This document shows positions 30,401-39,400 of a stretch of DNA of 64,000 nucleotides, in pieces. Under the pieces are notes generated by a model, which did not search any database, was not told the DNA's origin, and was given only the letters and a program-made list of their open reading frames with translations. Origin of the DNA: Aplysia californica. Lineage: Eukaryota. The stretch lies in the NCBI RefSeq assembly GCF_000002075.1, contig NW_004797633.1, positions 347,047 to 411,046 of the forward strand, given 5' to 3'. The number at the start of each line of letters is the position of its first letter. Position 1 is the stretch's first letter. Made by a program: the position numbers and the translations under genes.

Positions 30401-33400
30401 GGGAACTAAACCAGGTCAACATACCTGCTTATCCAGGCACACAATGAGTGTGAAGGGATCGTTGTACATCAGGGACGCTGCCCTCCTGCCTCTCATCTTT
30501 CGAGGAACGATAGATCCTCCTCGCTGGAAGGCAGGGAGCTTGAAAAAAAATTCATATGTTAATAATAAGTCCATTCATACGTTAATAATAAGTCCACAAT
30601 TATCCAATAAAAACATATACAATACAGAGCTTTTGGAATCTTTTTAGGTTTCCAACTAGCTTACTCCAGAGGCAAGTACAGAAAAAAGTTGAAAACTTGG
30701 AGGTCCCATGCACAAGTGGCACACACTCAAGATACCTCAACAACTGAACGTAGAAGAAGGGAAAGATACTAATGATACCACCGGCTATCCTTGTAGAATT
30801 TCAAAGTTAACTCCTGTAATATCATGACAGGATATGTTAAGGGCCACTATTAACATAATTTACATCATTTAGGGGGCACATTGTTTTGAACCTGCTTGTC
30901 TGGGCTAAACCAGCCTGAGAGACGGATACATCATCCCGGCAGAATAGAAAGATACTCGATTGAAAAAATCCTCCACACTTAAAGTTTAGTAAGGGTTTTA
31001 CCGCGCTCACAACTGCATAAGGTCATATGAGCATGCGAAACAAGTTGGTTTTATTCTCAATAGTTCACCGCACGGCCTGATTTTGGTCAATATTTCTAAT
31101 TAAAAAGTTAAAATGCTAAAAATTGAGGGTAAATAGATTCTCCTCACTTAGAAATCGATTGAAATAAAACTAAAATAAAACTGACTCGACATGAACACTT
31201 CATACCTTAGAAAGTGGAGCTTCCACATTCGCTTCCTGGCGTCCAGGGTACGTCTTATAAGTGTCGATGTCATACCAAACCTGAATATATTGAAAACATA
31301 ATTAGTCTAATTAGTCTGAGTTTCTGATAAACTAACAGAGCACAGTAATGATACCTACGGACATAATTCTGTGGTCCCGTTTTTTTCAAAGACAAAGTTC
31401 AAAACATATTGGGGGGAGGGGGATCTTATCTCATACAACTCGCACTCCAGAACAAGGAAAGCATACAAAATAAAATCCAGCTCACATGGCAGACAGTAAT
31501 CATAACTGGCCCCTATAAATCAACCAGTCCAATCATTCATACATGGCAATAACAGCTTCCAAGTGAATGATTTAAGTTTGAAAAGCTGGGTTTACAAGTG
31601 ATGATGATGTCAATCTTATTTTTTTAAACTTACAAAGTAGAGACTGCCTAACATCTAAAACATAGATGCGCAAGTTAAAAAATTCGTCTTCACTGATTTC
31701 TAGTAGACAGAAATCCATCTTCTGATGGCTTGCTTTCATTCATGCTTATCTCCATGCTTCACTTTCTGGACAGAATCCAATTGTATTTTGAGAGCAAAGA
31801 AAAGGTCATTCAGTGCTAGAGACAGACAGACATTAGTAAGAGAAATGGGAAAAAAAAGTAGCCGCAACTGGTAGCATTTTCCAACTGCTTGCATCAAATT
31901 TATGACCACTGCATTTTTATAACTCAATTAATGTCTAACTGCGACACATAAAATGATTGGTTCAGAAGAACACCCATTAACAGCAAAGTAAGCACAAATG
32001 CCGTTTCTCTGGTAACAGTTTTCCAAAGGGACATATTTACTCCGACATGCACAAAGGAAAACAAAGCTTACCGTGTTTTCTCCTGGGAAGTAAACGGCAA
32101 TGTCCGTCTGGCCCTGGTCAACAACAGGCTTGACAAGGATGGCATCACCTGCGTGAGACAGAACAAACAACAACCTAGTTAGTTTTAGTAGAGATTTTAC
32201 GGTGCTCGCAATTGCATAAGGTCATAAGAGCGCCAGAAGATTAGAGGTATTACAAGAGAGTAACAAACATAAAAAAGAAGAAGGGGAGATAAGGATGATA
32301 GATGTTTGATAGGAAAGAAGGAACAAACCACACCAGACCACCCGCCAACCATCCACTTAACAACAATCTAACACTTGCATTCTCACACCTTTAACGCAAC
32401 TAAACAAGAGTCACTATGGCGAAAGAACTGTTGGGGTAAAGACAAGCAGATCGACACAATAACAGTCATTTAGTACTTGGGGAAAAGTAAGACAGACAGA
32501 GGAAAAGAAAAGAAGCAGGACTAGGACCTAGGAGTGGTGCCCTCCAATCACCCTTGCGAAGGAACTACTCCATGATGCAAAGACTACTCACCTACATACT
32601 CAAAAGTCTACATTTTTTTAAAGTAAAGCTATACATGGCAGTTCCCTGACTCAAAGGTGAATTAAAAATATGAGAGGGGGGTTCTCGTGGTTTAGAGGTG
32701 CGGCGTTCACTTCTCATTCAATAGGTCCCGAGTTCGAAACCAGACAGCGACTGAAAATTTCCTTCTCTGAAATGTTCTCCTTTCACCTCCTTTCCTGCTC
32801 TCTAACCATCTTCTGTTATCTGCTTTCGTCTCCACTTTCTTCCCCCCCTCCCCCCTACTCTGAGCTCCTGACTCTTCTGCAGCCTTCCTACTGCGACTGC
32901 TTGGCTCCGTCTTACTGCTGTCTTTCAGCCAAACCCCTGATCTTAGGTAAGATCTAACACCTTGCCTCCTCAAGTATAAACGAAGAATCATGGAGGCTTC
33001 GTGTGCAAGTTGTACACGTTAAAGATCCCTTGGTGGTCCTAATATCAATAAGAGTTAGCTTTGGTCAAATTAATTCCGACCATACTAAAAATGATTAATG
33101 TGTCCTGCGCGCTCATATGACCAGATGCAGTTGTGAGTGCTGTAAACTTATCATAACAAACAAAAGACTACTCGTCTACATAAGTCTACATTGAGAAGTT
33201 GAGATATACATGGCAGTTACCTGACTCAGAAGAGAATTTAAAATATGAAAAATCATACAGTAATCTATATAAAGTGGACAACTGAAAATATTGGTGAGAG
33301 AAAGAACACAGGAAATAAGCACATTTACAGCCATGTTTTAACAATGAACTGAATTTTTAAAAAGATAACACAGCAAATTTGTCCCAAGGAATAGAAAATA

Positions 33401-36400
33401 CTACTGTACCCATCAACCGCCGGAATATTTACAGGTACAATAAACTCACTTCTACAACATGCAGAGGACAACAAAAGGTTCTTTTTTTCTTTTGCTTTCA
33501 GTCCCTTTTCTATGTGTATGAATTAATGAGGTTTTGAAAGTATGAAAAAAAGGTATTCGTGTTCCCATTTTCAGATCGTTTTCATAATAGCTATTCTACA
33601 AAATAACATTTCTATATCTTGATATTTTTGCAACAACTGCAACACATGCAACAGAAGAGAAGACCACATAAGACATGCATTTAATGAAGGAGAGGTATTA
33701 ACAAGCTTGTTAACTTTTTCAAAACCCAAGTAGACATCTAATATTGTAATATGAAATTGTCTGACAACGAACAAAATTACATTGAGTAGGACTGGACTCA
33801 ATTTGGTGCACTTCAGTATAAATCAGTTAAAAAGACTCTTAATCCTGTTCCTGTACTGTTCAGACACTATAGAAATGCATGTGCAGGGACAAAAAATTTA
33901 CAGATCATATTAAATACATTTTGTATCAAGAAGTCAGGCAAAATCCAAACAATTTAATGTGAATCACAATTTCTGTATTTATACAGAAAGAGTGGACCTC
34001 TGGGTCAAGTGTATGTGATAAGACTTTAAAATTCAAAGACGGTGCTGTGAAGTCTGGCATAGTCGCCAAGCCTGTATTCAATAATAAAGCACTCACCCAG
34101 AAGATACTCATCGTCCATGGCAAACACGTTGGTCTCCTTAGGGTACTCCATCCAGATGGCTCTCATGACGGGCATGCCAGTGGTCTCCGACTCATGGAAC
34201 AGCTGGTACCAGAAGGGCAGGTAGGTGTAGCGCTTCTTGATAGCCTCCCGCGCCACCACCATGTACGCCTCCGGCAGCAGGTATGGCTCACGGCGTTTTG
34301 TGTCGATGTGGGCATGGGCACGGAAAAATGGTTGGAAGACTCCAGCCTAACAGGAAAAAAAGACATAAGAAGGGTAGACAGAAGATGTTCTGACACTGGA
34401 TGGGTTCAATTCTAAAACAGCATAATCATCAACAACCGGTGCCTTTCTTAAACATGGCATTTGTCCTAAATTGAAAAACTAAGTAATTTTTTGGCCAAAG
34501 AATTCAGCTTTTCAAACAAATCACATCTAGAGTGAGTTTTTTAGTTTTAGTAAGAGTTTTACGGCACTTGCAACACAATAAGGTCATATAAGTGCTGAAG
34601 ATTAGAGGTGTTACAAGAGAGTAACAAACACAAAAAGAAAAGGAGGGGACATAAAGACAATAGATTTTTTATAAGAAAGAAGAAGCAAACCACACCAGAG
34701 CACCCGCCAACCACCCACTAAAAGAAAGCAACGATACAGCCACATCCACATTATACATAATCATCTAAAGTATTCATTAAAAAAGTACTTGTCTTACAAC
34801 GGTGAACTCACCTGGTACCACCTCGTCAAGAGCTCATTGTCAGGATTCTTGAAGAAGCCTCCGACATCAGCACCAGAGAAATGTATGCCAGCCAGATTCA
34901 GAGACAGCATCATCGGTACGGTCATCTTCAGATGGCTCCACTCTCCCATGTTGTCTCCAGTCCAGACCGCACCTGAGAAGGGAATAGCCATTGTTATAAT
35001 ACAGCGTTGTGACAAGAGTGATATAATGTGATGCTCTGACCTGGGCCTATCTTATTTGTTTACTATACAACATGAAACTGTCGAGGCAAACTTTTCTCTT
35101 TTTTCAATCAATATTTCATTTACCTAATGATTTCTAATTTGTGAACACAGAAATAAACACAGCTTTTTGATTTTCAGGTCCACTTACTTGTACTGTGGAC
35201 CACCCTCATTCAAAACAAAAATATGTATTCGTCTGAGTTTGGCATATCAGAGATTAATCTATTCAAATATTCCCTTGTACCTTCTTTGTAAGCTGTAAAA
35301 TAATATAGGAATGGTCATGTCAACTATTAGTTTAGTGATATCAAGCATTTTGAATAAAACTGGCAATTGCAATTCTGACAGATTGACACAAAGGCAAAGG
35401 AAACACACACTTTCTTTAAAAAAATGTTGAGAAAACTTATATCATGACATGACCTTAAGTTCAAAGACCTTCGATCATGTACTTGGGTATTGTCTAACAA
35501 CACACACACAACAACTTACTTGTCCTCTGGCTTCCAGCGAAGAAAGCTCTGGTCAACACAAAAGGCCTCTCCTGGTAATTACTTCTTTTAAGAAGACCAT
35601 CAAAAGTAGCGTCATGCTGAAAGTACCAATCAATAATACTAATCAATATTTCAACCTGTCTCTTCACCCACAATACAGTGCAACCAAATCTGAATCTGCT
35701 GAGCAATCTCTCAGCAGGAAAAAGTCCCTGAACAGCCCTGACTATCCTTTAGAAATCATAAAAGGAAAAGCTTGTACAGTTTCACAGATGCTATAAAGGG
35801 AATCAAACCTAAAGTTCTTTTTTTTTTACTTAAGGATATTAAAACAATTTCAATAGAAACTTCATTTTCCCAGTACACATATGTATGTATATATATATAT
35901 ACACTGTGGAATCTACTTACAGTGAATACACTTAATCCAAACCAGCAGTTAATAGAAAGAAAATAAAATCCTGGAGGTTTTTTTCCTTAGCTGTTCGAGC
36001 AATCTCTCGAAACTAAAAATACTACTAAACCGACAAAAATGAAGCAGTCCTGCAGATTTCAGTATAAGAGGACTCCATTGTATATTTACTTCTTACATTT
36101 GAGAGAAAAGAGCAGTAACAATTTTAGAAGACAATAAATAAAAAGCCACTGACCACTAGCTTTCCAAACAGGTTGTGGACCTCTCGGTTCTCTCGCCCAG
36201 ACAAATGTTTTACGTCCTTCGGAAAAGTTATTTCAGGCGCATTGAACACCGAAGGTTCGTTCATGTCGTTCCACACAAAGAGGTTATCGGCCGTGCCAAC
36301 ATACTTGTCCAGGGCAAACTGATCAGCCCACCAGTCACGCACATGCTTCTCCATGAAGTCAGGCCAGCTGGAGGAACCTGAAGAGGTACAAAGAGGCAGA

Positions 36401-39400
36401 AATACAGTAGTAAGTACTCCCTTGAATATCACGATGATGAGGGTTATCTTCATGAACCTCTTATATAATAGAATAAAATCCAGAAGCAAAAATAATATAT
36501 TCATTACGCATCTTGTGTCTTCATAAACTCTTCCTACACTCTTATAAACCTCTCCAGTGCTCTCAAAAACACTTTCAATTCAGAGCATGAAAGACCAATG
36601 GTATTAAAAACATTTAAAATTTGTATATCTTGGTTAGTCATCTTAGTCTCCCAATAGCACTTCCCTGGTTTTCCTATTTCTGACTAGGAAAAAAAATGCA
36701 ATGTACTGAAGCCATTAAATGTGAATAATGTTAAGACAGGGATTTTGTCAAACTTCTTTTCATTTTCTTAAAACAAGATTTTCTACTTTGTTGCATTTCC
36801 TTTAAAAAAAATTTAAAAACATTCATAAAGTTTATTTAATGCCCCTTGAAAATTTTACAACATTTAAAAAAATTACCCTTTCCATTTAAATGATGAGAGA
36901 GGACACAAAAATTAGAAAGACATGTGTTGAAGTACCAAGCTCGGTTAGAAACTTAGAACCAGGATCAGTGTGAAACTCGGGAGAACCAACTCAAGGTTAA
37001 ATTCAAAGAATCAAGCTCAGCGTGCAACTTGGAGAACCAAGCTCATTGTGAAACTCGGAGAACCACGCTCATTGTGAAACCCGGAGAACCATGCTCATTG
37101 TGAGACTCATAGAACCACGCTCATTGTGAAACTTGGACAACCACTCATTGGGAAACTCGGAGAACCACGCTCATTGTGAAACTTGGACAACCACGTTCAT
37201 TGTGAAACTTGGACAACCACACTCATTGGGAAACTCGGAGAACCACGCTCATTGTGAAACTCGGAGAACCATGCTCATTGTGAAACTCGGAGAACCACAC
37301 TCATTGAGAAACTTTCCTGCCAGACCCACCTGGCCAGCACCAGCCATCAAAGTCATTGCCGTCCTTGTTCTTCACCAGGAGCCCCTTGTCCCGAGCATCG
37401 CTGTACACGCGGTAACCGTCTTCACGTTTCAGATGGGGGTCCACAATGGTCACCATCCTGCGGCCCTTCGATGAAAGGTTCCTCAGCATCTCAATGGAGT
37501 TGGAGAAGCGGCTGCCATCCCAGGTGAAGTATCTGTACAACGACAGAAAAGCAAAAGTTTAGTTTTAGTTTTATTAAAAGTTTTACGGCACTCACAACAC
37601 ACTAAGGTCATATAAGTGCTGAAGAAAAGATGTGTTACAAGAGAGCAACATACATAAAAAAGAAGGAGGACTTATAAGGACAATAGATGTTTGATTGGAC
37701 AGAAAGAGCAAACCACACAAGAGCAACAGAGTTGCGGTATACAAGAGGCAGAACAACAGCCACATACTACACTCAATATCACAGACTATAGACCATCAAT
37801 AATTTATTTATAGATGCACCAGCCATCGATGTCTTGGTGCTGTTTTGGCCTCTAAAAATTCAGGGCAATAAAAACAATTCTAATGAGTAGAAAGAGCAGA
37901 CTACTAGAAGAGCACAAGCTACTGGCTGCATAAAAAGTGAATCAATCAGACAAACATGAACATGAGAAAACAAGTGCACAAAGGAGACACATCATGAACT
38001 AGTTAAAGGACACATATTTATAAATGTTTTAATTACTTTTTTTTAGTAGGGGTTTTACGGCACTCGCAACTGCATAAGGTCACATGAGCGCCAAGGGGTG
38101 GATGTCAACAGAGAAGTCCTTACAGGGAATCGAGCTTACTCTGCTCACTTCTCTAGCTTCAACAGCACAAAGTCTGCTTCCACTATCAAGGCACCCTGGA
38201 AATAGCGGGTCACAAGAGTGTGACAAACATACAAAAGAAGTAGAGGGAAAATGACGATAGTAAGGATAAGGAAAGAAAAAGCAGCAGTTCAAGCACAGTT
38301 ATGAGCATGACATTCATGAATCATGAACCAATTCTTTTGTGTATAAGAACATTAATGTCTCCCCTTTGGGAATGGTCTAAAGATACTTCAGTCAGTAGTA
38401 CAGCCCCGGGGGGGGGGGGGGGGGGGGGGGTTAATTACTTTACATGGACTGAGGTTAATCTATTTTTCAAAAATAAAGTCAAAGAAATCTGTTTACTTAA
38501 AACACTGGGCATTACACTATTATAGTTAATATATTATCACAATGATCTGTTCAATTATCACCCTAATCATCAATAATACCAGTATTTTTGTAGCAGTTAT
38601 TCTTTGAAACTGCACATAAAGCGGACCAATGTATCTTTCAAGACAAATCAGTTTGGCCCGGGGGGAAAAAAAAGTTATATTTATCTAAAAGGCGTACTTT
38701 TTAGAATCTGTATGTTCGATGTCCAGCCATATCACATCAAATGGAATGTCAAATTTGTCCATCGTCTGATCCACACTGAAAAAAAGACATAAAAAAGAAC
38801 AGTAGCATGGCAAAAAAGATTAACATAACAAGAAGATATAAGCAACCTACAACAAAAGGTATAAATACTCAAGTGCCCATACAGCAACCTAATGCTAAAA
38901 AAGCAAGGAAACTGATAACTACAAACCGCACAAAAAGTAATAAAACTGACCACAAAAAAAAATACATCTACACCTTAAAACAAACCCTTACGGTAATGAA
39001 CACACATCACAATTAAGTAATATGCCTTCCCTTTATCCAACATGAGACTAACCGTCACTGGAGTGTGCGTCTCTGAACAGCACTCTTATAACCCATACTC
39101 AAAAAACAGAGTGAGGAGGAGCAAATAGTCTTTGTTCATATGAGCTTATCGATTTATTACTTTCTTTGTAAGGACGATATAACCCTGTATCATATGTTAG
39201 CTTTTGTACATGAGAAAGCAAGAAAAATATTCCGAAAGGTAAAAAAAAAAGTGTATTTTTCTCTTCTCCTTTCCCTCTTTTTCATGCATTCAAATACAAT
39301 ACATTCACTTACTTTCTCACATCGTCTTGGTCATTGTAATTCCATCTGCATTGGTGATAAGCCAGAGACCACAGCTATAAAGAAAAAGAAAATATGCTAG

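Follow-up and report, generated by a model that had tools for sequence, protein, structure and literature searches.

Branch-point sequences borne by transposable elements are known from human splicing, and the accounts summarized here follow the portions of the cited papers on which we drew. The consensus of exonized inverted Alus carries a strong U2-pairing motif, CUAAU, which is a mapped branch point, with 154 cases recorded; the human branch point has a U at -2 and an adenosine 19-37 nt before the acceptor (PMC4315302). Elements also contribute branch sequences to disease pseudoexons, for example the 3' end of an L1MD3 at GPR143 and an AluY at CEP290 (PMC7951965). Intronic elements have zones of under-representation, and Alus show a sense bias 20-200 bp from exons (PMC3088655). 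In molluscs, SINEs with the tails of Nimb/I-group LINEs accumulate in genic regions (PMC11481361, PMC4758252). The part of PMC5786205 on which we drew held nothing relevant to the pattern described below.

The retroposon family studied here, family A, resembles each of these systems in part. As with the Alus, a retroposon consensus holds a strong U2-pairing motif, but the Alus lie antisense and supply the whole acceptor of a new exon, whereas family A lies in sense, is free of AG, and would provide only the branch region of pre-existing coding exons (PMC4315302). In the pseudoexons, too, a retroelement 3' end gives part of a predicted branch sequence and not the splice sites, yet those are single aberrant human events, while family A has a family-wide distribution at normal exons (PMC7951965). 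The Alu bias is similarly stronger near exons because one strand bears cryptic acceptor signals; mammalian elements, however, are depleted near exons and most of all near acceptors, whereas family A is enriched in sense with its peak in the branch zone (PMC3088655). The mollusc SINEs are likewise short and have 35-61 bp of 3' end in common with an I-superfamily LINE, but family A lacks a tRNA head, and that work, in the portions drawn on, tests genic compartments rather than splice-site distance or orientation (PMC11481361, PMC4758252). Element-borne branch points, depletion near exons and the Alu sense bias are thus already known. The new part is enrichment of a family in the branch zone upstream of ordinary coding exons, of which we found no report in mainly open-access main texts on splicing, mollusc SINEs and MetaSINEs.

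Family A copies at GANAB and RhoGEF acceptors

The window is a 64,000-nt stretch of the Aplysia californica genome. Within it, GANAB was mapped exactly with a 100%-identical A. californica protein to 22 exons on the minus strand. Introns 16 and 11 end at 32149 and 37533, and exons 17 and 12 had therefore been numbered correctly in the first-pass annotation. Intron 16 contains a 179-nt copy of family A, a non-autonomous retroposon, in sense to GANAB (32178..32356, minus strand), with a fixed G-rich 5' end and a T/C-rich body. AG occurs once on its sense strand and 24 times on its antisense strand. The copy ends 29 nt upstream of exon 17 (32072..32148, minus strand), in agreement with the insertion about 28 nt away that had been proposed. 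The hairpin near its 3' end (32200..32235, minus strand), common to families B and C and to a LINE 3' end, is predicted to fold weakly in this copy (z -0.95) and strongly in the copy at 11105-11176 (z -5.15). The tail, TACTAAAACTAAC (32178..32190, minus strand), holds two candidate branch adenosines judged from sequence: 32185, the A of a TACTAAA core at -37, and 32179, within the CTAAC at 32182-32178 and at -31, the position originally given for it.

Target-site duplications (TSDs) flank the copy at 32166..32177 and 32359..32370 (both minus strand). They are identical at 11/12 positions in the window and, with a variant at 32367 found in contigs of two other runs, at 12/12. The upstream duplicate marks host sequence that once lay upstream of -29 and is now beyond the element, and the displacement of native sequence, put at about 180 nt at first pass, is borne out, the other host adenosines having moved by ~190 nt. 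The pre-insertion site read GTTAG with its A at -28, and the insertion took away the -2 U; GTTAG may have had a role as a host branch site before that event.

The host pyrimidine tract and AG acceptor of intron 16 (32149..32165, minus strand) and exon 17 itself are supported by protein mapping and spliced contigs. Contigs from three of four runs, representing three studies, jump a gap of exactly 1948 nt, bounded by CT..AC, at this acceptor, and the fourth run reads through GANAB introns like DNA. The downstream duplicate contains a TAG, at -28 and 3-4 nt past the candidate branch A, which the spliced contigs leave unused in favor of the annotated acceptor. An AG too near the branch point is not used as an acceptor, and the skipping of this TAG fits a candidate branch A lying too close to it. 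No empty alleles were seen; both GANAB copies are also present in two other DNA-like runs, a sample too small for fixation to be judged.

The second GANAB copy is a 5'-truncated one (37558..37725, minus strand) that ends 25 nt before exon 12 (37330..37532, minus strand), an exon placed by protein mapping and by contigs whose exon 12 piece ends at 37532. Its CTAAA motifs offer candidate adenosines 37559 (-27) and 37565 (-33), so that the layout claimed for this exon, at about 27 nt, does recur. No host adenosine remains from the tail to -4, leaving those of the tail as the only ones upstream of -4. The candidate adenosines at exon 17 (-31, -37) and exon 12 (-27, -33) have the U at -2 and fall within the human range of 19-37 nt. 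Use of the tail as branch point in introns 16 and 11 seems to us quite probable. Right after the exon 12 donor begins a 26-nt minisatellite of ~12 copies (36955-37313) with periods of 52 and 78.

The third proposed case, at exon 11218..11368 of a PLEKHG-like RhoGEF gene on the plus strand, held only in part. A family A copy (10982..11175, plus strand) ends ~42 nt before the exon, its tail lies at -44 to -54, and the A of its CTAAC (11170) is at -48 as claimed. This is a weak example, since host-side branch candidates are still present at 11191 (-27, TTTAC) and 11199 (-19, CTCAA); the tail's candidate adenosines (-44, -48) also lie outside the human 19-37 nt range. An interrupted second copy (10691..10955, plus strand) sits in tandem directly upstream. 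An antisense copy (11399..11579, minus strand) located 30 nt past the donor of the same exon is a counter-example to strict sense bias at donors. The terminal part of RhoGEF, at 17500-20880 (plus strand), is open for >1100 codons.

Of the 15 copies or fragments found in introns across the window, 12 lie in sense (p=0.035, with tandem copies that are non-independent). In GANAB, a zone that takes up 3.5% of intron length contains 2/7 sense copies (post hoc test, p=0.022). An introner or intron-creating element was considered and rejected, as the copies lie inside existing introns whose donor and AG are host sequence. At 34540-34641 (plus strand), where the antisense strand is A-rich, each polyA run has 600-730 reads that terminate in A runs. 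Internal priming or true polyadenylation may account for them, a possible further cost of antisense copies.

Anatomy and relatives of family A

Family A copies are ~180 nt long. They open with a fixed G-rich stretch, continue in a T/C-rich body, and close with a 3' hairpin followed by an (ACTAA(A))n tail. Exact anchors number 14,922 for the tail and 13,762 for the head in the 927-Mb genome. The head, a G-rich tract followed by internal T runs, is not tRNA-like, and a search of the window for a tRNA-derived (SINE2) head gave no tRNA or Rfam match. TSD scores were at least 9 in 105/159 full-length local copies. Among 50 tail-unselected copies, the TSD was 10-14 nt long in 45, and its first three positions showed an excess of A only (0.46-0.56). 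Both the variable length of the TSD and a LINE-shared 3' end that finishes in short tandem repeats are as expected of a non-LTR retroposon produced by TPRT.

This 3' end is common to family A, the 410-nt family B, the 530-nt family C and a young LINE; against the LINE 3' end at locus L342, family A matches at 84% over 54 nt. The partner-type LINE has RVT_1 and RNase H matches in Pfam, endonuclease matches in 1226-aa frames ~3 kb upstream at matching places, and 150 scored copies at 91-100%. It also has a motif that we take to be a zinc knuckle. The hairpin end is present at 12/12 of its loci, but its tail is (ACT)n without the TACTAA motif, and the exact mobilizing LINE may therefore be a sister family. 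A Nimb/I-group identity for the partner is a lead suggested by these features. Family A is not a truncated 3' UTR of the LINE found, with which it has only ~50 nt in common. The 1226-aa frames occur in the young LINE family at L621-L632 and at G000:C221:856916-864986, with 3'-end tandem repeats at C221 and C204.

Several relatives and neighbors were recorded alongside. Family B (~410 nt; window 38033-38400, minus strand; L037, L060, L081, L236) starts with CCCCC..GGGCGGTGC, combines part of the family A body with the same tail, and has an internal donor-like word, AGGTGAG, on its sense strand. Family C is a ~530-nt SINE with a head that looks tRNA-like by eye and the same hairpin end (window 32680-33170, plus strand, and 58435-58977, minus strand; L070, L332), and may be the described Aplysia Nin-DC SINE. 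Copies often adjoin or enter earlier copies (window 10691-11175 and 1139-1438; many loci), about one-fifth having another within 480 nt upstream. A MITE of ~430 bp with long TIRs and 10,968 ends (L018, L044, L561-L620) has an internal acceptor-like TTTTTCC(G/A)CAGG and an end that reads CTCAC.

Distance and orientation genome-wide

We counted the acceptor-like motif Y6-N-YAG-G at four distances (~30, 60, 110 and 310 nt) behind sense tails and antisense heads. Rates give the number of real-looking exons that follow the motif in each 28-nt bin, per 1000 anchored copies. Exons were called with a classifier of our own making, which sees coding exons only and applies a coding-plus-donor score to downstream sequence only; trained on two genes, it recovered 20/20 GANAB and 6/7 RhoGEF exons and accepted 3% of 582 decoys, the donor matrix not being held out. 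Raw motif counts fell with distance for sense copies (105, 98, 77 and 54; p=0.0003) and stayed level for antisense copies (44, 39, 34 and 40; p=0.73). The sense:antisense ratio was alike near and at 100 nt (2.2 vs 2.1), and raw counts by themselves tell nothing, false acceptors making up most of the matches.

Real-exon rates behind sense tails were 3.10, 1.58, 1.36 and 0.27 per 1000 with rising distance, from calls in 44/100 examined of 105, 12/50 of 98, 20/76 of 77, and 4/54. Antisense rates were 0.07 (1/44), 0.07 (1/39), 0.29 (4/34) and 0 (0/40), with the first two cases being one same acceptor. The sense copies are thus enriched ~11-fold near acceptors relative to 300 nt (p=5e-10), differ sharply from antisense copies in the near zone (p=3e-12), and show a difference in orientation between the near and 100-nt zones (p=0.046). 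Without nested second tails, the sense rate at ~110 nt falls from 1.36 to 0.88, as in 7/20 of those cases another tail lies no more than ~60 nt from the acceptor. Sense copies had been expected at first pass to be tolerated or enriched at -20 to -50; they are enriched rather than just tolerated, and the converse, that they might be as depleted near acceptors as antisense copies, clearly fails.

Pfam support for the downstream exon followed the same order, with 18/100 sense-near, 1/44 antisense-near, 7/76 sense-far and 2/34 antisense-far loci. Open frames of at least 20 aa from the near and ~100-nt sets were submitted, past the first 60 loci only score-favored ones. Some loci speak against the classifier: L396 scored 7.0, yet its Pfam support adds an antisense case at ~70 nt; L146, counted as antisense-far, has its exon 33 nt behind a further antisense head, and the Pfam match at L277 is doubtful.

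On the donor side, a real-looking exon preceded the sense head in 9/30 examined of 54 (including two duplicates), compared with 2/30 of 61 for antisense tails, 2/30 of 51 for sense copies at 300 nt (a control inflated by the donor-like word inside family B) and 7/206 decoys. The first-pass proposal that the tail explains the orientation bias is therefore overstated: sense copies are also in excess at two places that require no branch point, just after donors and 100 nt out from acceptors (20/76 vs 4/34), and the branch point is not the whole cause.

Three accounts of the enrichment itself bear on these profiles. Uniform insertion followed by weak positive selection, with exon-adjacent sense copies favored for the strong branch point they add and for intronic signals of the U-rich or G-run kind, would suit an enrichment that is specific to family and strand. 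The control MITE end (10,968 copies) stayed at baseline at acceptors (2/30 of 39, or 0.24 per 1000) and donors (1/30 of 36), the 50 unselected copies had, apart from 1-3 A where the TSD starts, no DNA target motif, and false acceptor motifs were not enriched close to tails (53 vs 34 control matches). An 11-fold excess, however, demands selection at very many sites, and perfect CTAAC is not enriched; we hold this account to be distinctly unlikely. Loss of copies far from exons, with exon-adjacent ones shielded, or targeting of host branch motifs through tail microhomology, is extremely improbable. Hairpin identity is slightly lower near real exons in the mean (30.2 vs ~32.4, p=0.09) but equal in the median (34 vs 34-34.5), shielding is absent for the control MITE, and nesting is equal (10/44 real vs 11/56 false); microhomology has a few long cases, such as AACTAA at L181, but is mostly 0-1 nt. 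Neither age nor nesting differed significantly between the real and false acceptor sets.

Preference for pyrimidine-rich targets was rejected, as control motif matches were only 1.4-fold higher after tails and TSD composition was unremarkable; a branch-like DNA target motif was not seen in the 50 unselected copies. The third account is guided insertion, in which the exposed UACUAA tail of the element RNA would bind SF1/U2 and travel with them to where spliceosomes assemble, and the LINE enzyme would insert near splice sites in sense. The steep sense-only gradient on both exon sides would be in keeping with this, as would a tail predicted to be unpaired past the hairpin in 3/4 folds, and the related LINE with an (ACT)n tail, lacking the motif, offers a natural control. 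The idea is purely speculative, purging of antisense copies accounts for the strand bias more simply, and we judge guidance very unlikely. We are nearly as doubtful of the broader version, a splice-site-seeking retroposon whose tail attracts SF1/U2, directs insertions to the edges of exons and has standardized the branch points of about a thousand constitutive introns, and would call it decidedly improbable.

Unusual arrangements were noted at some loci. L146 and L208 have tandem duplications of the acceptor region, with repeated antisense heads and acceptor before a collagen exon at L146 and acceptor-donor units repeated after a sense copy at L208. An apparent tiny intron made of element at L208 sits in that tandem duplication and was dropped. 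At L151/L308 (G000:C169:1071741-1071932), a 93-nt exon lies between sense copies that are each within 35 nt of a splice site.

The tail as candidate branch point

That the tail mimics a branch point is favored by the survival of sense copies in the branch zone, where antisense copies almost never survive (44/100 vs 1/44), and by the U2 match; the branch role itself is likely rather than observed. The best U2 match was 5/6 in 41/44 tail cases, as expected from the anchor by construction, and at least 5 in 5/39 host acceptors. Among the 44 real sense-near cases, 14 have no adenosine between the tail and -15, and a host-side YTNAY is absent in 29 and retained in 15. Of the 17 empty sites that could be reconstructed, 7 had a host YTNAY that the insertion displaced or split, 7 still have theirs, and 3 had none. 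Two antisense copies near real acceptors, at L146 (ACTAAC) and L396, keep downstream host branch-like motifs, which also speaks for the tail. By sequence criteria, then, the tail would be sufficient and is sometimes the sole candidate.

Nothing we saw points to selection for an improved tail. The adenosine-free share is not significantly above that of false acceptors (14/44 vs 11/56, p=0.17), and cutting host acceptors at the same distances gives an expected 20%. CTAA[CT] is not enriched near real exons (~9/44, by eye, vs 14/50 unselected copies), and most tails carry CTAAA rather than perfect CTAAC or CTAAT. At L087, the real acceptor of an ABC transporter exon is 19 nt from an antisense copy, and no host adenosine survives.

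The tail might instead be dispensable, with degenerate host or cryptic branch sites in use and the pattern produced by exon-edge insertion preference together with an AG-free sense strand. Such an explanation would accommodate the sense excess and near-exon enrichment at donors, the 15/44 introns that keep YTNAY, the lack of surplus CTAAC or adenosine-free cases, and splicing at L087 with an antisense head at -19. It has difficulty with the introns in which the tail holds the only nearby adenosines, namely the 14/44 and GANAB exon 12, and with a sense:antisense ratio of 44:1 in the branch zone vs ~3-5:1 at donors or 100 nt. We consider it unlikely.

Proposed explanation and significance

From the observed anatomy, positions, acceptor use and profile, we favor, as moderately probable, the reading that sense copies cluster by real exons, chiefly 18-45 nt before the acceptor, where the likely branch point is the TACTAAA(A)CTAA tail, which would rescue insertions that displace the host's own. 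LINE machinery would mobilize family A. Its AG-free, pyrimidine-rich sense strand would be harmless in an intron, and the antisense strand, with 24 AG and GAAGAAG, would be purged, giving the general orientation bias by analogy with the part of the Alu study drawn on (PMC3088655). The exon-edge excess most likely reflects an insertion preference for accessible exon-flanking DNA from which only sense copies survive. In the branch zone the tail would rescue sense insertions through presumed pairing with U2, because it matches TACTAAC at 5/6 pairing positions, a closer fit than that of most host sites. Only population data could tell apart access, positive selection and guidance by splicing factors as causes of the enrichment.

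The pre-acceptor zone is regarded as the part of an intron least tolerant of transposons, and family A accumulates there. Scaling 46 matches by the 2/27 known acceptors that fit the motif gives a very uncertain estimate of ~600 exact-anchor copies so placed, with more among diverged copies. With hundreds of dated insertions whose empty sites can be reconstructed, the family would form a test set for branch-point turnover and for insertion preference vs selection. The likely rewriting of branch points by family A would be a route by which mobile DNA can supplant a core splicing signal of ordinary exons.
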